A stretch of DNA of 64,000 nucleotides, from positions 7,678-71,677 of the forward strand of contig DASVHW010000043.1 of assembly GCA_036382395.1 (NCBI GenBank). Reading direction: 5' to 3'. Positions 3,101 to 62,699 of the stretch are shown here, piece by piece; the first letter of the stretch is position 1, and each line of letters opens with the position of its first letter. The notes beneath the pieces are model-generated. The model made no database searches. It was given only the letters and a program-made list of their open reading frames with translations, and was not told the origin of the DNA. The translations under genes and the position numbers were made by a program. This DNA is from Candidatus Binatia bacterium. Lineage in GTDB: Bacteria; Desulfobacterota; Binatia; HRBIN30.

Positions 3101-4957
3101 AAGCTGGTCCAGGGTTATGACTTTCTGACCGTGTTCGGTCTGTTTCTGTTCGTCCTAGTGCCCTTCGTGCTGGCGCTCTGGACGCGCAGCATCCGGCGGG
3201 GAGAGGAACCGCTCGGTGTTGGCCGGTCGTTGTTACTCATCGCCACGATCGCGCTGATACTAGTCAGCCTGGCGATCTCCACGCGGGTGTTCTCCGCCAT
3301 TCTGTTTCTGCTGACCTTACGTCCCCTGCTGGCGTTCAACACGGAACGCCGCTGGCGCATTCCGTTGACCATGGCGGCATTTGCCTTCGCCATCACCGCG
3401 GGCTGCGATCTCGTGTACGTGTGGGATCGCATGAACACCATCTTCAAGTTCTATCTGGAAGGATGGTTCTTGCTGGCCATTGCCGCTGCGGTCGCCGCCG
3501 GCGCACTCTGGAACGGCGCCGTGCGGCTGCCGTGGTTTCGGCCTATCTGGAAGGTCGCGCTCTCGCTGCTCATCGCCGTGGCGCTGTTCACTGCCGCAAC
3601 TGACACACTCGGGGTGATCCGCACCAACCGCATGCCGACCCCAAAACCGACGCTTGACGGCATGGCGTATCTCCGGGAGAAGGCCCCGTTCGAGTTGGCC
3701 GCGTTCGAGTGGTTGAACCGGCATATTCAAGGCATCCCGGTGATCTTGGAAGCGCACGGTGATTCGTACCAGGAATTCACCCGCGTCTCCATGAACACGG
3801 GCCTGCCGACGGTGCTGGGCTGGGAGTATCACGTCTTCCAGCGCGGCCACCCGCAGGCCGAAATCACTCGCCGCAAGAGCGACATCGAGTCGGTGTACAC
3901 CAGCAACAGCAAGGACAAGGTGGCGGCGTTGCTGCAACGCTATCACGTCGCCATGGTGTTCGTCGGAGCCCTGGAGCGTCGGGTGTACGCCGGTGGCAAC
4001 CTCGAGCGCTTCACGCAATGGAGCGACTTGCTGACCCCGGTGTACCGCAATCCCGGAGTCACGATCTTCGCGGTGAACGGCCGCTTTACGGGAACTATCC
4101 CGGTGACCACGATCGAGGACATTGCGCAGCCGGCGCCCGAGGAAGGAGCACCGCAGGACGCCCCCGGCAAGCTGCATCAGCCGCGCGGCGTGGCCGCGAC
4201 GCCGGAGGGCGATATCGTGGTGTGCGACTTCGGCAACAATCGTATCCAGGAGTTTGCCCGCGACTTGAGTTTCGTACGCGAATGGGGAACCCCAGGCCAG
4301 TTGCCAGGGCAGTTCAAGGAACCCTGCGGCATCGCTGTCAGTCCGAACGGTGAGGTCTTTGTTGCCGACACCTGGAATCATCGCGTGCAGGTGTTCTCCA
4401 AGGCAGGGGAGTACGTCCGCGAATGGGCAACCAGCTTCTATGGTCCACGCGGTGTGGCAGTGGACTCCACCGGGGCGGTGTTCGTGGCTGACACCGGCAA
4501 CAATCGCATCGTGCGCTTCGCTGCCGATGGACAGAAGGAGATGGAGTGGGGAGGAAAGGGATCGGAGCCGGGCCGCTTTCTCGAGCCGGTGGGGCTGACC
4601 GCCGATGCGGCCGGCACGGTCTACGTCTGCGACAACGGCAACGGCCGGCTACAGTTGTTCGGTCGCGACGGGCGTTTCGTCGGTGCCTTCCCGGTGGCCG
4701 GGTGGGAGAGCAAGGTGTATTCGGAACCCAACGTGGCTGTCGACCCGTCCGGCACGATCTGGGTGACCGTGCCGGGAGCCAAAGAGGTGCGCAACTATGA
4801 CCGGACCGGCAAGTTGTTGCGCACCATCACCGCTCAGAACACTCCCGGCGTGAGCTTCGGCATCCCCATGGGAATCACTTACCACGCCGCCGGCCATGCA
4901 ATGATCATCAGCGATCTCGATCACCGCCTGGTGCGCATCCCGCTGGCGCCACAGTGA
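179..4957 (+). CDS. Very large polytopic membrane protein (1592 aa). It has an N-terminal GT-C-type glycosyltransferase domain (PMT/ArnT, GT39-like; FHPDE motif), a second multi-TM domain (possibly DUF2298-like) and a C-terminal NHL-repeat six-bladed beta-propeller.
   Basis: Long ORF with GTG/ATG start at 179/182. Hydrophobic N-terminus with a 'FFHPDERAV' DE-type GT-C loop motif. Second TM-rich block carries 'EFPLWSFLFADLHAH'. C-terminus has repeated 'VCDFGNNRIQEF / VADTWNHRVQVF / VADTGNNRIVRF / VCDNGNGRLQLF' NHL blades. Confidence 0.65.
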   Translation: MMKFLRSLWSSPRLWVVVIVVCAAAVRLIHIEWDENHFFHPDERAVAFSVQRLSFRPLQMDPDFFAYGSLPIYLAKITSSALALVDPHAATYDGVIVNGRRVSAVIGALTVFLLIILGSRLYDRSVGLLSGVLLAACALHLQNSRFMTVDVTLTFVVLLALYLLVRVATEGRLTHFILAGITIGLATATKFSAMPLFLPLGIATLRRLWVERRFFPIAARCGLAVVAAVLAFALAEPYAVLRFGRFYHDILEQSHMVRNAGTFPYTTQYMGTPKYWYDLEQLIIWGMAPALGLAAVWGTATRVVAGFRERRIEEWVLLSWVVPFFLITGWFEVKFPRYLLPIYPLMILWAAEWLVRKYRSGTLFGRLTAPLVVVGTLAAASAFMSIYTRPFTEVTASQWAYRHIPSGSKILTQDWDEGFPMSLPLPGAQAERYRVVPFGYYEQPDSSSKVQRLSQELASADYIVFQTKRLYGAVTRAPERFPLTTNYFYELFAGDLGYTLEQEVAARPGLFGFEIPDELADESLTVYDHPKVLIFRNTERLAAPVIAEKILRGLPSRPLTRNDLLLARPSGGLPLETTGAAPPIQSSLLALVLFAALVEILSLAAYPVLRVWLTGVGILALSKTLGVLLFAYLSWLMISLGAADFTQGALSAMAFGLAAVGALMWRRTRVPLSRGEIISTEALFWGAFAYFLVVRMYNPEVYWGEKPMDFSFLNTLTRTTTLPPAEPWFAGSPLQYSYFGHYTVAALGKTLHLDPALTFNLGIALIGGLTAVAAFSVGAVVTGQWQTGLLAAFFVALIGNLAGPREWFARHAIGFDYFWATSRVIRDTINEFPLWSFLFADLHAHVLVMPISLTFLCLTVLWVRTHVLQSRQQRPRGTTLALLVLLCLTLGAIMVTNTWSTPTYILFFVFLLGTLWLTEAEHGGWLGFLFGGIARVGIPSALLVVGAYVLFHPYWSHFVRAEGAWLGWERLGPDKLVQGYDFLTVFGLFLFVLVPFVLALWTRSIRRGEEPLGVGRSLLLIATIALILVSLAISTRVFSAILFLLTLRPLLAFNTERRWRIPLTMAAFAFAITAGCDLVYVWDRMNTIFKFYLEGWFLLAIAAAVAAGALWNGAVRLPWFRPIWKVALSLLIAVALFTAATDTLGVIRTNRMPTPKPTLDGMAYLREKAPFELAAFEWLNRHIQGIPVILEAHGDSYQEFTRVSMNTGLPTVLGWEYHVFQRGHPQAEITRRKSDIESVYTSNSKDKVAALLQRYHVAMVFVGALERRVYAGGNLERFTQWSDLLTPVYRNPGVTIFAVNGRFTGTIPVTTIEDIAQPAPEEGAPQDAPGKLHQPRGVAATPEGDIVVCDFGNNRIQEFARDLSFVREWGTPGQLPGQFKEPCGIAVSPNGEVFVADTWNHRVQVFSKAGEYVREWATSFYGPRGVAVDSTGAVFVADTGNNRIVRFAADGQKEMEWGGKGSEPGRFLEPVGLTADAAGTVYVCDNGNGRLQLFGRDGRFVGAFPVAGWESKVYSEPNVAVDPSGTIWVTVPGAKEVRNYDRTGKLLRTITAQNTPGVSFGIPMGITYHAAGHAMIISDLDHRLVRIPLAPQ

Positions 4958-4972
4958 GCTGACCCGGCACCC

Positions 4973-7609
4973 ATGCACGCAACCGAGGCCACCCAGGCTC
5001 CAAGGATGCAAACGACTCATGCGCCGCTGACGTCGTCCACGCCAGTCAGGTGGCGAGGGCTGCGGATACTGCTGCTCGTGGCCGCGCTGGCGAGCGCCGC
5101 CGCAGGCCAGTATTGGCTCAGCATCCGGCACGTCGCGCTCTGGTCAGCGCCAGCATGGATGGCCGCGCTGGTCTGCTTCATCCTTCTGTACATCCTCGGA
5201 CGCGATGCTCGTGAACTCCCTTCTCCGAACGACGGTGCGGGCTCACGGTATGCGCAGTGGGGTTGGCTAGCGCTGGTGCTGGCTGTCGGCGTCTTCTTCA
5301 CCGTCTTTCGCCTCAATCAGTTCCCGCCGGGGTTGAATCACGACGCCGCCTACGAGGGCTTGTACGCCATCCGTATTCTCAACGGACTGCCCTATACGCC
5401 GTACACTCCAGAGGCCTGGGGTCGAGAAACGTTCACCTTCTATCTCCGGGCACTCAGCGTGCTGCTCCTCGGCCCGACGCGGCTGGCGGTCACGCTGCCG
5501 TCGACGGTGGCCGGCATCTTCATTCTGCCCTTCTTCTTCGTCTGGGCACGCAAGATGTTCGGCGCACGCTTCGGCCTGATGGCGACGCTCCTCCTCGGCG
5601 TCTCGGGTTGGCACCTGGTCTTCAGCCGCACCGGCTGGCGTTCCGATTTCCAGCCGCTGTTCATGACCATCACCTGTTGTTTTTTCATACGCGGCATGGA
5701 CACCGGTCGTGCGCTGGATTTCGCCCTCAGTGGAATCGGCTTGGCCGCGGCCTTGAACACCTACAACGGCGCGCGTCTCTTCCCGCTGCTTTTCCCGCTC
5801 TGGCTCGTTGCCGTCCTGCTGCAGTCCTGGCACTGGCGCGGATTCCTCCGCCAGTACTGGCACGGTCTGCTGTCCATGGCGGTGGCCTTCGGCATCGCCG
5901 TGGCGCCGTTGGCCTGGTACGCGGTACATAATTGGGAGGTCTTCCAGGGCCGGGCGCACGCGTTGGCGGGCGCCAGCACGCTGGTTGGAGCCCTCAAGGT
6001 TACGGCGCTGCTGTTCAACTACCGGGGAAATGGCGATGACTTTTTCATCGATACGCCGGCGCTTGAATACCCCGCCGCGATATTCCTGGCCTTTGGCATC
6101 TTGTGGGGCCTCGCCCGGATCCGCGACGAGCGCGTGCAGTTTGTCTTGCTGGGACTGGTGATCAACGCTGCCCCCGGCCTGGTGAGCAAGCCGAATATGA
6201 ACCGGGACATCGGCACGATGCCGTTCGTCTACTTCTTCGCCGCCTTGGGAGCCATGTTCTTCGCCACGCAGATCAGGCGGCTCATCCCTCGCGTGGGCCA
6301 TGTGCTGGCCTTGGCGTTCCTGGTGGTCGCCGGCGCTTCGGCACTGCAAGCGACGTTTGCACAGTACCTGGGTCAGCACCGGCGGGCCGTATGGGGCTAC
6401 TACCCCGAGACCACCGTGCTCGGAAACTACATCAAGACACTGGTACCGCAGTACAACATCTGGGTCGGTGGCGCGAATTTTCCGCGCGACGCCTTGACCT
6501 ATCTCTCGTACACCGGCCAAGTCGACCCGATGCAGCGCAACTACACCTGGCTGGATGATGTCACCGTGCTGTTGCAGATGAGCCCGGGGCTCGCGGCCAG
6601 CAAGGGACTGGCGTTCGTCTTGGCGACCAACGAGGAACCGAGCAGAACGGTCCTGCGCCAATTGGAGCAGCGCTATCCGCAGCACCAGGTAGTCGACGTA
6701 CGTTACCCGGAAGAGAACGGCCCGGTCTTCGCCAGGGCGCTACTGGTAAGTCCCGAGACTGCGACCGAAACGCCGGCACCAGCGACCGCCCCAAAACCCG
6801 CAGAGCCGCCGACTCCCATCGGACAAGTACATCAGCCGCGCGGGGTAGCGGCGACCGGCAATGGCCATGTCTTCGTGTGCGACTTCGGCAACAACCGCAT
6901 TCAGGAGTTCGGACGTGATCTGAACCCTGTGCGGCAATGGGGCGGCAGCGGCCAGACGCCCGGACGGTTCAACCAACCCTGTGGCGTGGCGGTGGATCCC
7001 GCTGGACAAGTCTTCGTCGCCGACACATGGAACCACCGTGTCCAGGTCTTCTCCGCGGAAGGCAATTTCGTGCGCGCGATGGCGGCGGATTTCTACGGAC
7101 CGCGCGGCATCGCGGCGGACGCGAACGGCAGCGTATTCGTCGCCGACACGGGAAACAACCGGATCGTGCGCTTGTCGGCGACCGGCCAGAAGGAGAAGGA
7201 GTGGGGCGGTAAGGGCTCAGAGCCGGGACGGTTCCTGGAGCCGGTGGGCCTGGCGGTGGACGGCACTGGGCAGGTGTACGTGTGCGACAACGGCAATGGG
7301 CGGCTGCAGACTTTTACCCGCGACGGGGAATTGCTGAGTCAGTTCCCGGTGCCGGGATGGCAAAGCGGGGTGTATTCCGAACCCTACGTGACTCTCGATC
7401 CGCGCGGCAACATTTGGGTCACGGTGCCGAGCGCAAAAGAGGTCCGCAGCTATGACCGCGCTGGGAAGTTGTTGCGTACCATCACGGGACAGGGCACCGG
7501 TGGCGTGACCTTCGACACGCCGATAGGCATCGCGTACAGCACCGCCGCGCGCGAGTTGATCGTCGCCGACCTCGCCGACCGCGTGGTGCGCATCCCGGAC
7601 AGCCGGTGA
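4973..7609 (+). CDS. Membrane glycosyltransferase (GT-C, ArnT/PMT-like) fused to a C-terminal NHL-repeat beta-propeller (878 aa). Paralog of the upstream gene.
   Basis: ATG at 4973, only 15 nt after the upstream stop. About 560 aa of multi-TM ArnT-like domain, then an NHL domain ~75% identical in protein (~80% nt) to the C-terminus of the 179..4957 product, with the same blade motifs. Confidence 0.65.
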   Translation: MHATEATQAPRMQTTHAPLTSSTPVRWRGLRILLLVAALASAAAGQYWLSIRHVALWSAPAWMAALVCFILLYILGRDARELPSPNDGAGSRYAQWGWLALVLAVGVFFTVFRLNQFPPGLNHDAAYEGLYAIRILNGLPYTPYTPEAWGRETFTFYLRALSVLLLGPTRLAVTLPSTVAGIFILPFFFVWARKMFGARFGLMATLLLGVSGWHLVFSRTGWRSDFQPLFMTITCCFFIRGMDTGRALDFALSGIGLAAALNTYNGARLFPLLFPLWLVAVLLQSWHWRGFLRQYWHGLLSMAVAFGIAVAPLAWYAVHNWEVFQGRAHALAGASTLVGALKVTALLFNYRGNGDDFFIDTPALEYPAAIFLAFGILWGLARIRDERVQFVLLGLVINAAPGLVSKPNMNRDIGTMPFVYFFAALGAMFFATQIRRLIPRVGHVLALAFLVVAGASALQATFAQYLGQHRRAVWGYYPETTVLGNYIKTLVPQYNIWVGGANFPRDALTYLSYTGQVDPMQRNYTWLDDVTVLLQMSPGLAASKGLAFVLATNEEPSRTVLRQLEQRYPQHQVVDVRYPEENGPVFARALLVSPETATETPAPATAPKPAEPPTPIGQVHQPRGVAATGNGHVFVCDFGNNRIQEFGRDLNPVRQWGGSGQTPGRFNQPCGVAVDPAGQVFVADTWNHRVQVFSAEGNFVRAMAADFYGPRGIAADANGSVFVADTGNNRIVRLSATGQKEKEWGGKGSEPGRFLEPVGLAVDGTGQVYVCDNGNGRLQTFTRDGELLSQFPVPGWQSGVYSEPYVTLDPRGNIWVTVPSAKEVRSYDRAGKLLRTITGQGTGGVTFDTPIGIAYSTAARELIVADLADRVVRIPDSR

Positions 7610-18397: not shown

Positions 18398-19648
18398 TCA
18401 GGGCAAGCTCAAGTTGATGGTGGCAGATCGTCCGCCTTCGAGGTAGGGATCGTTGCTGGAAGTCGACAGCGCACCGGAGCCCGGAATGGTAAAGCGGTCG
18501 ATCACCAGACCAACCACTGGGACGTCCGTGCCCCGCACGACCAGGTGTGCGGTATCGGTGCCGACGGCGCTGCGGTGTAGGGCAAACAGGGAGCTGAAGC
18601 GCAAGCGGTTGAAGCAGGTGACGATGGTGGCGCCAGAGAACCGCTGTTCGAACTCGTTAACCACCGCCAGTTGTACATTGGCGCTCGACGGCAGTTGGTT
18701 GACCAAATCCTGCGAGCAGGGCACCAACACCAAGTCGCTGTCGGATCCGGCTTGGTTGGCGAGCACATTGAAATGCAAGCGGTCCGGACATTGCTCGTAG
18801 GTGATCCCGTCCAGCGAGACGACGCCGGTGAAATCGCCGGGGCTCAAGCGCCTGAATGCAATCGCGCTGTAGCCAACCATCTGGCCCTTCGTGTCGGACA
18901 TCAGCGCCCGGCCTTGCAGGGCATTGTAGGAGCTGAGGCCGGCGTCCGGCGTGCTCGGGACGACGACACATTTCAACTCGCCGTCGCCGAAGAAGGGCGA
19001 AGCGAGACGGCCGCCCGTTCCGTTTGCACCCGTGCTGGCCATCCATGATACCGGCTGATTCGGTGTCAGACTGAGGGAAAAACCGATCTCGTTGCAGGTT
19101 CCGCTACTGACGTAGAAGCATTCCACCGCAACGCGGGAGCCGGTAAGGTTCACCATCTCTATGCGCGTATCCTCCGTCGCCGAGGCCCGGACAAGCGGAT
19201 AAATCAACACCGCTGAAGGGAGCTTTTGCGCCGGCGGTACACCAACAACCTGGAACCCGGTGGGATCCGAACTCGATAGGGCGGCCGTCGGTGACGCCGT
19301 TGGCGTGGAGCTGAGAGTGAACGTCGCCGTTGCCGAAGGACTCGATGTGGCGGTTGTCGATGCCGTCGCGGTGGGGATGGAAGTTGCCGTGTACGTCGCC
19401 GTGGGCGTCAATGTCGGGGCGAGCGTGGCGTTGGGAACCGTCGTTGACGTCGGAATGAGAGTCGCTGTTGCCGTGGCCGTATTCGGTGGCGCATCCGTCG
19501 GCGTCGCGGTTGGCGGCGGGGTCGGTGTCAACATCGCCACGGTCGCCGTCGGCATAGTGCGGCGGGGCAAGAAATTGAACCGCCCATGACCAACATGGTG
19601 CATGTACAGCAAGGACAAAGCGGCCAGTATGCGGAGTAGCTCACTCAT
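18398..19648 (-). CDS. Secreted protein of unknown family. It has a signal peptide, a long Thr/Pro/Ala-rich low-complexity linker and a C-terminal ~270-aa Cys-containing domain.
   Basis: ATG at 19648 and hydrophobic N-terminus. TP-rich tract 'TPTPPPTATPTDAPPNTATATATLIPTSTT...'. The C-terminal domain shares 'PPAQKLPSA', 'ECFY', 'CNEIGF', 'QCP', 'VGTDTAH' with the adjacent paralog. Confidence 0.6.
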   Translation of the reverse strand: MSELLRILAALSLLYMHHVGHGRFNFLPRRTMPTATVAMLTPTPPPTATPTDAPPNTATATATLIPTSTTVPNATLAPTLTPTATYTATSIPTATASTTATSSPSATATFTLSSTPTASPTAALSSSDPTGFQVVGVPPAQKLPSAVLIYPLVRASATEDTRIEMVNLTGSRVAVECFYVSSGTCNEIGFSLSLTPNQPVSWMASTGANGTGGRLASPFFGDGELKCVVVPSTPDAGLSSYNALQGRALMSDTKGQMVGYSAIAFRRLSPGDFTGVVSLDGITYEQCPDRLHFNVLANQAGSDSDLVLVPCSQDLVNQLPSSANVQLAVVNEFEQRFSGATIVTCFNRLRFSSLFALHRSAVGTDTAHLVVRGTDVPVVGLVIDRFTIPGSGALSTSSNDPYLEGGRSATINLSLP

Positions 19649-19653
19649 GGCAT

Positions 19654-20589
19654 CTACGGAAAGGTCACGGTCGCAGAGCTACCGCCCTCGAAGGAAGGCT
19701 CATTGCCGGCAGTGCCGGTAGTGCCTCGGAACGGCACCTCATCCACGACCAATCCCAGGAGCGGTCCACCCGAGCCACGGACGACCACATGCGCCGTGTC
19801 GGTACCCACGACTGCTCGGGTCAGGGTGCCGGCGCCGATGTCCGTCAACGGGCGCTGGTCGAAGCATTTCAGGGTGCTGGCTGTGGAGAACTGCGATTCG
19901 AACTCGTTGTAGATGACGAACTGCACCCCCAGCGAGGTCGGGGTTTGCGTCAGCAAATTCTCGGTGCAGGGCACGAGAACCATCTCGCTCGAAGAGGTTG
20001 GTTGGTCCGCCGTCAGGACATCGAAGTGCAACCTGCTGGGGCACTGCGCGTATGTCGTCCCATCGAGCTTGAACACCCCGGTGTAGTCACCAGCGCTGAG
20101 GCGTTGAAAGCCTACGGCGCCGTAGGAAGCGGACTGCCCGTTCGACGAGGTAAAGATGGTCGCGCGCCCCTGAATGGCGTTGTGGGAATCGAGATCTGGC
20201 AAGGTTGCCTGCACGGCGCACTTCAATTCGCCCGTCCCAAAGAACGGCGGAGCAGCGCTGCTCCCACTGTTGAGCCCGGAACTGGCCAGCCACGCCATCG
20301 GCTGGTACGGCGTCAAAAGGACCATAAAGCCGATCTCGTTGCAGGATGCCCCGTCGATGTAGAAGCATTCGACCAACTGGGGATCGCCGGACAGATTGAC
20401 CAATTCAATTCGAGTGTCTTGCGCCAGATGGTTGGGTTGATCTTCAGACACCTGGACGAGCGGGAAGACGAGCAGCGCCGAGGGCAGCTTCTGGGCTGGA
20501 GGACCCCCTGCCCAGGCGCTTGAGAGCGACAACAACACTGCCCCCAAAACAACCAGCGCCTGTTTAGCCCACCACAGCAAACGCATCAC
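19654..20589 (-). CDS. Secreted Cys-containing protein, paralog of 18398..19648 without the TP-rich linker.
   Basis: Signal peptide 'MMRLLWWAKQALVVLGAVLLSLSSAWA'. Collinear conserved motifs with the upstream paralog. 5 nt downstream of the other gene's start. Confidence 0.6.
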   Translation of the reverse strand: MMRLLWWAKQALVVLGAVLLSLSSAWAGGPPAQKLPSALLVFPLVQVSEDQPNHLAQDTRIELVNLSGDPQLVECFYIDGASCNEIGFMVLLTPYQPMAWLASSGLNSGSSAAPPFFGTGELKCAVQATLPDLDSHNAIQGRATIFTSSNGQSASYGAVGFQRLSAGDYTGVFKLDGTTYAQCPSRLHFDVLTADQPTSSSEMVLVPCTENLLTQTPTSLGVQFVIYNEFESQFSTASTLKCFDQRPLTDIGAGTLTRAVVGTDTAHVVVRGSGGPLLGLVVDEVPFRGTTGTAGNEPSFEGGSSATVTFP

Positions 20590-27782: not shown

Positions 27783-27814
27783 CAAAAAGGGACCTCCGGC
27801 ATGCCGGAGGTCCC
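27783..27814. terminator. Bidirectional rho-independent terminator between convergent genes.
   Basis: Perfect 26-nt palindrome 'gggacctccggcatgccggaggtccc' (27789..27814) preceded by 'acaaaaa', which on the minus strand reads as a trailing T-run 'tttttgtt'. Confidence 0.7.
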
Positions 27815-27848
27815 TCCCTGACGACGGCCTAGTACGCGGGCCGGATTA

Positions 27849-39744: not shown

Positions 39745-39791
39745 GAAGAGCCGTCAGCATTCAGCTAACAGCGGTCAGCTTCGGAGACCAG

Positions 39792-39828
39792 GTTCCCTCT
39801 CCCTCCGGGAGAGGGTCAGGGTGAGGGG
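39792..39828. repeat. REP-like palindromic intergenic repeat, copy 1 (gttCCCTCTCCCtccGGGAGAGGGtcagggtgagggg).
   Basis: 9-bp perfect inverted repeat CCCTCTCCC/GGGAGAGGG plus a 'tcagggtgaggg' tail. A near-identical copy is at 44926..44962. Sits just downstream of the nuoEF stop. Confidence 0.6.
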
Positions 39829-40243: not shown

Positions 40244-40271
40244 GTAGCGGCGCAGCATGCTGCGCCGCTAC
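40244..40271. promoter_or_regulatory. Perfect 28-nt palindrome (gtagcggcgcagc-at-gctgcgccgctac). Candidate operator or terminator hairpin.
   Basis: Exact 13-bp inverted repeat around a 2-nt centre, between the 92-aa ORF and the secreted-protein gene. No T-run follows. Confidence 0.35.
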
Positions 40272-44898: not shown

Positions 44899-44925
44899 TC
44901 GTGTTCGGAAGAACAGCCCGGTTGG

Positions 44926-44962
44926 GTTCCCTCTCCCTTTGGGAGACGGTCAGGGTGAGGGC
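44926..44962. repeat. REP-like palindromic intergenic repeat, copy 2 (gttCCCTCTCCCtttGGGAGAcGGtcagggtgagggcc).
   Basis: Matches the 39792..39828 element at ~33 of 37 positions. Lies between the FAD-oxidase stop and the glpK start. Confidence 0.6.
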
Positions 44963-58872: not shown

Positions 58873-60096
58873 ATGCCGGTCGCCATCCGCCGCTACGCCG
58901 CGGTAATCGCGGTAATTGTCGCCTGCGTTGCGTGTCTCGTCATCCTTGGCGAACGGGCGGACGCGGATATGACGCTGATTCCATTGCCGGAAGTCATCGT
59001 TGATCCGAACGAAGGCACCACCGTCGGTTTTCTTCCCGTCATGCTGATCGCCAACGACGCCAAGAGCATCCGCAGTATCATCGCTCCCGACGTCCGTTAC
59101 AACGACACCTTCGGTGTGTACCCGACGGTTCGCTTCTTCGACTATCCCGATCCCAAACAGAAGTACTTCATCATGGGCGGGAAAGGGAGCAAGCGCGGCG
59201 AGGACCTCGAAGGGAATTATGCCGGCCAGGATCTTCTCGCCGGCTGGCTGGACCTGCGCGCCGACGCCGCGCACGAGGATGACCCGTTCGAACGGTTTTA
59301 TGGCTTCGGCAACCACACCCCGAACTCGAACGAGGCCAATTGGACCTCGAGGACCAACGGCGGAACATTTTTCACCGGCTTGAACTTTTTCGGAGATTTC
59401 CAGGCCTTCTGGCAGCCGCGGCTGCGCCAAGTGCGTGTCGGCCGAGGCGGCATCGGCACCCTGCCGCAAGTTCGCGATCCGACATCCGGTTTTTCCAGCG
59501 TCAACGGTGTCACCGGCGCCTCGATCTTCGGCCAGCAGTTCGGATTGATCTACGACGATCGTGATGTTCGCGACATTCCCACGCAAGGCGTGTTTGCCCA
59601 GAGCTCCATCGAGATCGTCGACAAAGCCCTCGGCAGCTCGAACTCGTTCATCAAATATGCGTTCGAGGGCAAGTCGTTCATTCCGTTGCGGCCGGACAAG
59701 AAGTTCATCGTTGCGCTGCATGCGGTGTTGAATTATCTGCAGCACGGTGAGGATGCCCCGTTCTACGAGAAGAACAGCGTCGGCGGCATTGGCAGCCTGC
59801 GCGCCTTCGGCAGCCACCGGTTCACCGACAACCATCGTTTTTTCCTCCGGGGTGAGCTGCGCACCAACGTCTACGAACGGGAAGTCTTCGGCGTACGGGC
59901 GCATCTCGAGATCGCACCGTTTCTCGACGTCGGCAAGGTGTTCAATTCCTCCAGGGAGTTTCCCCTCGAAGACCTACACGTCGTCGGCGGGCTCGGCTTC
60001 CGTGCCGTCGTCGTCCCCCAGGTGGTTGCGTACGTCGACTTTGGCAGCTCGGGCGGAGCCCCCGCCGCGTTTACCGGGATCGACTATCCGTTCTAG
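58873..60096 (+). CDS. Outer-membrane beta-barrel protein (Omp85/surface-antigen-like barrel, C-terminal Phe).
   Basis: Signal/anchor 'MPVAIRRYAAVIAVIVACVACLVILG'. Alternating beta-strand pattern. Ends '...GIDYPF', the canonical OMP C-terminal aromatic signature. Confidence 0.5.
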   Translation: MPVAIRRYAAVIAVIVACVACLVILGERADADMTLIPLPEVIVDPNEGTTVGFLPVMLIANDAKSIRSIIAPDVRYNDTFGVYPTVRFFDYPDPKQKYFIMGGKGSKRGEDLEGNYAGQDLLAGWLDLRADAAHEDDPFERFYGFGNHTPNSNEANWTSRTNGGTFFTGLNFFGDFQAFWQPRLRQVRVGRGGIGTLPQVRDPTSGFSSVNGVTGASIFGQQFGLIYDDRDVRDIPTQGVFAQSSIEIVDKALGSSNSFIKYAFEGKSFIPLRPDKKFIVALHAVLNYLQHGEDAPFYEKNSVGGIGSLRAFGSHRFTDNHRFFLRGELRTNVYEREVFGVRAHLEIAPFLDVGKVFNSSREFPLEDLHVVGGLGFRAVVVPQVVAYVDFGSSGGAPAAFTGIDYPF

Positions 60097-61281: not shown

Positions 61282-61387
61282 GGCTCGGCTTCCGTGCCGT
61301 CGTCGTCCCCCAGGTGTTGCGTACGTCGACGTTGGCAGCTCGGGCGGAGCGCCCGCCGCGTTCACCGGGATCGACTATCCGTTCTAG
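61282..61387 (+). pseudogene. Duplicated 3'-terminal fragment (~106 bp) of the outer-membrane protein gene. Degenerate copy with a 1-bp deletion.
   Basis: 61282..61387 aligns to 59990..60096 with 3 substitutions and 1 indel, including the terminal '...GIDYPF*' codons and the TAG stop. Confidence 0.7.
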
Positions 61388-61389
61388 CC

Positions 61390-61589
61390 GCAATGCCAGT
61401 AACTTAAGCGGCGTCGTGCCAAGATCGCATCCTTCGAGACGGCGCCTGAAGGACGGCGCCTCCTCAGGATGAGCGGATAATCATTGTTGCATCAAGCCAA
61501 TACCGCTCACCCTGAGGCCGCATCTCCTCAGCGGCCGTCTCCTCGAAGGGTGGCGGCCACCTCGGAGGCCCTTAAGTTACTGGCATTGC
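61390..61589. mobile_element. MITE-like 200-bp element with perfect 19-bp terminal inverted repeats (gcaatgccagtaacttaag ... cttaagttactggcattgc) and a nested 15-bp hairpin.
   Basis: Left TIR 61390..61408, right TIR 61571..61589. Inner stem 61452..61466 / 61493..61507 (14/15 match). No ORF inside. Lies between the duplicated gene fragment and the epimerase gene stop. Confidence 0.45.
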
Positions 61590-61601
61590 TCCTAGCCCCC
61601 G

Positions 61602-62699
61602 CTACTCGGTCGGCGGGCGATCTCTCTGGACCTTCGGATCGAAGTATGCGAGCCCGAGCCCCGGCGGCTGCTTGAAGCGGACCTGGCTCAGTCGCTCGAG
61701 GCCGTCCTTGTACAACGCAATCAGTCGGTCCTCCGAATCGTACTCGAACGGGTCCTGCAGGATCCACTCCGTTTCGCCCCCGGGCGGTGGTGGGTTGGCG
61801 ACGTACCAGCGGGCGGTGAGCGCAAGCGCTGCCGGCGGGGAGACCGGATCTCGATATCCAAGCTCGCGCCGGAGCTTGCCGATGTCGAGCACTCGGTGGG
61901 TCGGCAACGGGTGCATGATCATCGGCCACGCGGGGCGCGCCACCTCCCAAGGCATCGACACGATCTCCATCTCGTGGTCGAGGGCGGCGCAGATGCACTC
62001 GACGACCTGCCTGAGGCTCAGCACCTGTTCGTCCCCGGCGTTGTACACCTGCCCGGCCGAAACCGCGGGGTTGTCGAGGGCCAGCAGGACGGCGTGCGCC
62101 ACGTTTCCCGAGTAGCCGAAGGTGCACAGCGTCAGGCCGCCCTCCGGAAGGATTATGTGTCGCCGGCCGTCGATGATGCGGCGAACGATGCACCATTCGC
62201 GCGGCACGAGCTGCCGGGGGCCGTAGACGTACGGGTAGCGGATGTGCGTCGCCTCGGGATGCAGCGCCAGCACCGTCTCCTCCGTCATGCGGATGCGGTA
62301 GCCCTTGCGGTGCTCCTCCTCGCTGGCCACCTTGGGTCCATCCTCGTAGGTCGGCACCGGCATCCCCACCGGCGTGAACCGTCCCGGCTCGAAGTAGCCG
62401 CGATAGCACGGGAAGCCGCCCGCGGAGATCAGGCGGCCCGTTTTGCCGACGAGGAGTTCGGCGATCGCGCGCAGCCGCCCGTAGGTGACGACACTCACAT
62501 CGAACGTGCGACCGGCCAGCGCCTCCCGAACGGCGCCGGGCTCCCAAGGATCCACGTGGATGTGCTCGACCTCGGACGGGATCTCATCGATCTCGTGCAG
62601 GCTCCTGTGCAGCATGGACACGCGGTAGCCGCGCTCGATGAGCCCGCGAATGATGAACGGCCCCGTGGGGCCGGTCCCGCCGACGATGAGAGCCTTCAT
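61602..62699 (-). CDS. NAD-dependent epimerase/dehydratase (extended SDR).
   Basis: 'MKALIVGGTGPTGPFIIRGLIERGYRV' Rossmann motif. Start at the ATG at 62699; the track ORF extends to 62729. Confidence 0.8.
   Translation of the reverse strand: MKALIVGGTGPTGPFIIRGLIERGYRVSMLHRSLHEIDEIPSEVEHIHVDPWEPGAVREALAGRTFDVSVVTYGRLRAIAELLVGKTGRLISAGGFPCYRGYFEPGRFTPVGMPVPTYEDGPKVASEEEHRKGYRIRMTEETVLALHPEATHIRYPYVYGPRQLVPREWCIVRRIIDGRRHIILPEGGLTLCTFGYSGNVAHAVLLALDNPAVSAGQVYNAGDEQVLSLRQVVECICAALDHEMEIVSMPWEVARPAWPMIMHPLPTHRVLDIGKLRRELGYRDPVSPPAALALTARWYVANPPPPGGETEWILQDPFEYDSEDRLIALYKDGLERLSQVRFKQPPGLGLAYFDPKVQRDRPPTE

Follow-up and report, generated by a model that had tools for sequence, protein, structure and literature searches.

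Correia elements (Neisseria), ERIC, RUP and Nezha are small non-coding intergenic MITEs with inverted-repeat ends, target duplications and long hairpins. Bacterial MITEs are roughly 50-600 bp long and encode no transposase; the classical ones outnumber their autonomous partners, and regulatory effects (promoters, RNase III sites, terminators) have been documented for some of them. REP/BIME sequences, which are GC-rich extragenic palindromes, are often located between convergent genes and can influence how stable an mRNA is (PMC3184786). MIC231 elements of Bacillus cereus are non-autonomous IS231 derivatives and move with their cognate transposase acting in trans (PMC6199540). Among insertion sequences with their own transposase, the IS4 subgroup is described by the end consensus -AATR--------WTW (De Palmenaer et al. 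2008, Table 1, PMC2266710) and is listed with direct repeats of 10-13 bp and a length of 1.40-1.65 kb (PMC2266710). IS4 of E. coli K-12 has the ends TAATGCCAGTCAGTTAAG and TAATGCCGATCAGTTAAG and sits in a 12-bp duplication (ATCTTGGTTCTG).

The element analysed here lies near the right edge of a 64-kb stretch of DNA (the window) and measures 200 bp, made up of perfect (19/19) terminal inverted repeats around 162 bp. Its left repeat (GCAATGCCAGTAACTTAAG; 61390..61408, + strand), putatively the recognition end of a transposase, is matched on the right by the exact reverse complement (61571..61589, - strand). Even with up to three mismatches allowed, these two arms are the only places in the window that match the 19-mer, and in 100 dinucleotide-preserving shuffles no match turned up. 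The interior (61409..61570), a non-coding foldback as judged from folding and interior comparisons, contains a nested 15-bp hairpin (61462-61476 / 61503-61517) that pairs at 14 of its 15 positions, and at full length the element can be folded as a single long, imperfect hairpin (+ strand -117 kcal/mol, - strand -125 kcal/mol; z about -9 for each). ORFs that reach 40 aa are absent from its inside; the few mechanical ORFs found here merely run across the edges of the element. Hence, what the original prediction had read from the letters, namely perfect 19-bp repeats at these positions, a nested hairpin of 14/15, lack of an ORF and a placement directly after an OMP fragment and 12 bp from an epimerase stop, was reproduced throughout.

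On its right, the element is faced by a convergent NAD-dependent epimerase-like gene (61602..62699, - strand), whose stop codon (61602-61604) is 12 bp away from the element's right end. On its left, the element starts 2 bp past the TAG of a decaying 107-bp duplicate of an Omp85-family (OMP) gene's 3' end (61282..61387, + strand; original at 59990-60096). Directly abutting the two ends are 8-bp direct repeats that qualify as target-site duplications, TTCTAGCC on the left (61382..61389), which contains the TAG stop of the OMP gene remnant, and TCCTAGCC on the right (61590..61597), with one mismatch between them (7/8). As the palindrome CTAG is part of this repeat and thus present in both flanks, complementarity of the arms reaches as far as 25 nt (61384-61408 / 61571-61595, 92%). 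Neither a 3-mismatch scan nor short-word BLAST found further or degenerate copies in the 64-kb window, and a transposase homologue was not found in it either, so that any movement of the element would have to take place in trans.

Other repeats in the window are of different kinds. There are two perfect 28-bp palindromes, GGGACCTCCGGCATGCCGGAGGTCCC at 27788-27815 with an A-run before it and GTAGCGGCGCAGCATGCTGCGCCGCTAC at 40244-40271, both centred on GCATGC, which are probably transcript-end hairpins. A direct repeat of 37 bp (39791-39827 and 44925-44961) has 92% identity. Two paralogous stretches that have diverged, one of 773 bp at 72% (4175-4942 and 6830-7597) and one of 212 bp at 68% (18963-19171 and 20213-20418), are located in or beside large ORFs.

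Outside the window, scans with the exact 19-mer returned 12 stretches from 185,579 species-representative genomes and 115 from JGI metagenomes, and the 162-bp interior was compared by BLAST with all of these 127 loci. This revealed a family of about 201 bp at six or more distinct insertion sites (metagenome contigs and one Binatia MAG), the interiors of which are about 84-98% identical to ours, with L021, L032, L047 and L070 at the lower end (~84-86%). L124 and L045 are partial relatives by the same comparison, and L001 holds the edge of a family copy in a Candidatus Binatia MAG, JBIOJG01. L021 is flanked on both sides by TTCTAGCC, the very 8-mer seen to the left of the window element, and L032 by GTCTAGCC (8/8 in either case); the flanking repeats of L070 and L124 match at seven of eight positions each. 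L047 has no flanking repeat and one flank in common with L070, and is therefore rearranged. Beyond the 8-mers, the flanks of the family copies are unrelated from site to site, and the copies are thus independent insertions, each of which duplicated 8 bp of target.

The 19-mer also bounds full-length insertion sequences. In L006, a MAG labelled "uncultured delta proteobacterium" (GC 0.66), it occurs in inverted orientation 1.8 kb apart and delimits an IS of 1,810 bp, both ends of which are identical to the window 19-mer and both flanks of which read CCTTAGGC. Two more were recovered through a protein search with the transposase clade: L146 (1,806 bp) between perfect 8-bp repeats (AGCTAATA / AGCTAATA) and L147 (1,809 bp) between GGCTAGGC and GGCTAGGC, the latter with the end variant GCAATGCCGGTCACTTAAG. 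The L006 element encodes a 125-aa protein (Pfam DUF6788) and, overlapping with it, a 448-aa transposase composed of the Pfam domains Nterm_IS4 and DDE_Tnp_1, which scores 238 bits against the NCBIfam IS4-family equivalog NF033592 (cutoff 115), shares 36% identity with E. coli InsG (E = 4e-83) and has in its translation the motif YHERWELEIGFDEVK, i.e. Y(2)R(3)E(6)K. L146 and L147 each combine a DUF6788 ORF with a transposase, too. In all three the DUF6788 ORF (124-125 aa; L006 319-696, L146 2676-3050, L147 2673-3050) overlaps the transposase gene at its start, and in L147 another DUF6788 ORF is found close by. The transposase clade comprises 5,375 proteins at E ≤ 1e-40, mostly encoded on contigs of ~1.8 kb, as is expected of a repeated IS. 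A partial copy, L061, has a 46%-identical transposase adjoining the exact 19-mer.

Among the first 127 loci a transposase is encoded in L006 and L061 only, which implies that miniature copies far outnumber full-length ones. Two other candidates for full-length elements were rejected: L011 is a chance pair of ends around ordinary genes, and L115 turned out to be a miniature copy of ~145 bp into which an IS of the IS110 family has inserted. This arrangement (3814-5600), in which the inserted IS has the Pfam domains DEDD_Tnp_IS110 and Transposase_20, echoes the known habit of the IS110 family of inserting into extragenic palindromes. No parent IS sharing subterminal sequence with our element was present among the 127 loci, and the element's interior has nothing in common with the interior of any full-length IS examined. 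Hence, the element is not a simple deletion derivative of those IS, and it is only by its ends that it is tied to the transposase.

A similar picture emerges for miniatures in general. The first 127 loci contain 92 pairs of inverted ends (up to 3 mismatches) that sort by length into classes of about 105, 126, 144-145, 201, 222, 288-295, 374 and 520 bp. The interiors of these classes are mutually unrelated; their common part is confined to the ~20-bp ends. Among 79 non-redundant miniatures the flanking repeats match at all eight positions in 37, at seven in 27 and at fewer in 15, and within the perfect 8-bp repeats positions 4-5 are T-A in 86%. CTAG (14) and GTAC (8) are the commonest target cores, and outer positions are G/C-rich. 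As for individual series, the contigs Ga0247838 to Ga0247842, which make up most of loci L013-L127 (locus GC about 0.5), contain dozens of 144-145-bp miniatures, sometimes two or three per 10-kb contig and mostly in perfect CCCTAGCC or CCGTACCC duplications. To us, this has the look of a burst, although the loci retrieved from that series showed no transposase. In an actinobacterial (Umezawaea) MAG, a 105-bp miniature with the same ends lies in a perfect repeat of GTCAAATC (L004, 4112-4216), and the exact 19-mer is also found in Lachnospiraceae, Calditrichaceae, Alteromonadaceae, Salinibius and Rheinheimera contigs, where some occurrences resemble element ends. This distribution suggests that the 19-mer ends have spread across phyla.

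How long the element has been in place can be gauged from other strains. The same locus, including the element, is present in seven independent assemblies from different samples (L022, L128-L133), and all sampled strains with an identical epimerase carry it. Samples that contain this strain include SRR35575056, SRR35575052 and ERZ27294202. In L022, the same locus of a 98%-identical strain, it measures 221 bp: at 61555-61562, the window element is shorter by 18 bp (GGGCACCTTTCGGGTGGC, framed by GGTGGC repeats) and by a GAG triplet, both of which are present in all of the other assemblies of the locus (L022, L128-L133); more distant family copies also go without the 18 bp. Fixation in the sampled close strains, the one mismatch in the target duplication and the 18-bp and 3-bp indels between strains indicate an insertion that is not recent. 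Contigs often end inside the element, which fits a repeat as well as a palindrome that confounds assembly. Further to the right, beyond 62895, strains L128, L129, L130, L132 and L133 (all with an identical epimerase-like protein) diverge from the window; past this point L128-L130 have type I restriction-modification genes (HsdM, HsdS) in place of the window's PHP-domain gene.

A base-exact empty site was not found among close strains, more distant relatives or OMP orthologues. Orthologues at 77-83% DNA identity have no element but differ in their downstream genes, and a 95%-identical strain (L142/L143) has TTCTAGCC once and unoccupied at the end of its OMP gene, with a different right-hand neighbour. 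For the locus minus the element, the predicted empty junction is CCGTTCTAGCCCCCGCTACTCGG. In L142/L143 the OMP gene end reads ...CCGTTCTAGCCGC... and is followed by a different gene; a short-chain dehydrogenase gene, a 107-bp copy and the element are all missing there. It follows from this terminus that TTCTAGCC is the native end of the OMP gene and, in L142/L143, an unoccupied target.

This bears on the 107-bp duplication next to the element, with which the original prediction had seen a possible mechanistic link. The two copies, 96% identical, bracket the short-chain dehydrogenase gene. Each differs by about two changes of its own, and the downstream copy, although frameshifted by a 1-bp deletion, has kept the native CC behind its stop. 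That the element caused this duplication or arose from it may be suspected, given that the 107-bp copy ends a mere 2 bp from the element. However, transposition in this family leaves 8-bp repeats rather than a 107-bp repeat 1.3 kb off, the left 8-mer is native in a strain with neither element nor duplication, and private changes in both copies together with the frameshift fit an independent rearrangement involving the dehydrogenase gene. To our minds, a causal connection is thus highly unlikely, and the proposed link did not hold up against the exclusive 8-bp duplications, the native TTCTAGCC of L142/L143 and the independent divergence of the copies. On the simplest interpretation, a rearrangement introduced the dehydrogenase gene along with an OMP 3' end and left the old terminus as a remnant beside the epimerase-like gene; the element would be found in this old terminus because a preferred, CTAG-centred target was available there. 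The absence of both the dehydrogenase gene and the copy from L142/L143 marks the region downstream of this OMP gene as a hotspot of rearrangement. Among named proteins, those most similar to the OMP come from Candidatus Binatia MAGs (67-68% identity). Together with the related copy in L001, this makes a Binatia-related, GC-rich (63.5%) uncultured bacterium the likely source of the DNA.

The hairpin itself invites another explanation, which the original prediction had offered as an alternative to a MITE: a structured RNA evolved by the host (an sRNA gene, a shared 3'-UTR hairpin or a bidirectional terminator) and not mobile DNA at all. Very stable folding on both strands (z about -9), a position between convergent genes only 12 bp from one stop codon and stems that vary less than loops among family copies speak in its favour. 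Searches of Rfam at permissive thresholds, however, gave only meaningless microRNA and IRES hits (the top one, to a plant microRNA model, scored 33 bits where the gathering score is 268), and between 61000 and 62000 neither T-tract terminators nor sigma-70-like promoters were detected. The foldback is retained in the six family members, but with a covariation term of 0.09 and compensating changes in only 2 of 72 pairs the structure is inherited with the element rather than demonstrably under selection. Moreover, the same element recurs at loci that are unrelated to one another, each time with an 8-bp duplication peculiar to the site, and ends in the sequence that bounds transposase-encoding IS, and a secondary, co-opted role as RNA would leave the origin of the element unexplained. 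With no Rfam family, T-tract terminator or hairpin covariation behind it, we give the host-RNA alternative very little chance. As a by-product, the modelled hairpin may nevertheless influence how the two convergent transcripts terminate or how stable they are.

If mobile, the element might still belong to another superfamily. CTAG, with TA inside it, is placed symmetrically at both ends (CTAGCC|element|TCCTAG), which could be taken for an IS5-type (4-bp CTAG) or an IS630/mariner-type (TA) MITE; the element would then measure 204-208 bp and have imperfect outer ends. Such a reading is scarcely credible in that it needs two mismatched bases (CC vs GA) at the extreme tips, whereas the 8-bp repeats abut the 19-mer and are perfect in L021, L032, L006, L146 and L147, with the AGCTAATA target containing no CTAG, and the partner transposase is of the IS4 family, not IS5 or IS630. 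The 8-bp repeats and the IS4-type partner rule out duplications of the IS5 (CTAG, 4 bp) or IS630 (TA, 2 bp) kind. Inverted repeats can also come from misassembly, but in view of the shuffled sequences (0 matches in 100), a structure present in seven independent assemblies and related copies elsewhere, the odds of a chance palindrome or an assembly artefact are practically negligible.

Taken together, the element is very probably a non-autonomous MITE with the ends of an IS4-family (IS4-subgroup-like) transposase, and the ~1.81-kb IS its autonomous partner. The MITE interpretation of the original prediction, which had suggested searching for further copies of the ends, for an IS with matching ends and for target-site duplications, is borne out by all three: copies with the 19-mer ends are dispersed over unrelated sites in other metagenome contigs, full-length transposase-encoding IS with the same ends exist in other genomes (L006, L146, L147), and the 8-bp target-site duplications match at seven of eight positions for the window element and at all eight for L021 and L032.

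As to how the MITE may have reached its present site, we envisage that a transposase, encoded at another locus of the genome or in an earlier host, attached to both 19-bp ends and, supplied in trans as is known for MIC231 and IS231 (PMC6199540), excised or copied the element. The element would then have been inserted at TTCTAGCC through a staggered cut of 8 bp. This target is the stop-codon context of the OMP gene remnant, which lies 6 bp away from where the convergent epimerase-like gene stops. The long hairpin would be a built-in property of a foldback element. A bolder scenario may be considered, in which an undescribed IS4-subgroup-like clade, marked by an upstream DUF6788 ORF, an 8-bp duplication and a palindromic T-A target, has repeatedly spawned unrelated miniatures across phyla, and in which the 201-bp foldback of Binatia has in addition been co-opted as a bidirectional transcript-end hairpin. 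In this extended form we regard it as speculative and rather doubtful.

Within the library searched, the end sequence gave only unrelated primer matches and no description of the family. The family is previously uncatalogued and yet an ordinary, textbook MITE with a recognisable IS4-type partner. Mildly new are the 8-bp, T-A-centred target, the accessory DUF6788 ORF and the repeated birth of unrelated miniatures on the same ends. For annotation, our findings account for a conspicuous palindrome and for the assembly breaks of this lineage at the spot, and the 19-mer ends combined with an 8-bp repeat with central T-A provide a signature for masking Binatia-like and other environmental genomes. 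For mobile-DNA biology, they add an IS4-type MITE family with a ~1.81-kb partner and a duplication shorter than in the subgroup listing, and they show one end sequence serving many unrelated miniature families, while the current understanding of how such elements work is unchanged.

In comparison with described systems, Correia, ERIC, RUP and Nezha belong to other transposase families and have other end sequences than the window element. Like REP/BIME, it is an extragenic palindrome between convergent genes; it differs throughout, however, from REPs, which are ~20-40 nt long, have neither terminal inverted repeats nor target duplications and go with Y1 (RAYT) transposases. With MIC231 it has in common that it is non-autonomous and bounded by IS4-family ends, but MIC231 elements measure 0.7-3 kb and carry passenger genes, whereas ours is non-coding and only 200 bp long, and they belong to the IS231 subgroup with different ends (CAT...) and repeats of 10-12 bp. 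As for IS4 itself, the ends of the window element (CAATGCCAGTAACTTAAG) agree with the IS4 end TAATGCCAGTCAGTTAAG at 15 of 18 positions, and CAATGCCAGTAACTTA fits the IS4-subgroup consensus -AATR--------WTW; an IS on a Deinococcus plasmid, with a 49%-identical transposase, has the ends C/TCAATGCCAGTAAGTTAAG. As in E. coli IS4 and its subgroup, the partner transposase has an IS4 N-terminal domain, a DDE domain and the YREK motif, although the window element, unlike E. coli IS4, comes without a transposase of its own. Two features set the partner apart from the subgroup as listed. At ~1.81 kb it is longer than 1.40-1.65 kb, which is due to the extra DUF6788 ORF upstream, and, together with the miniatures, it consistently duplicates 8 bp with a T-A centre instead of 10-13 bp. 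This consistency of the 8-bp repeats points to an IS4-subgroup-like clade with a shorter duplication.
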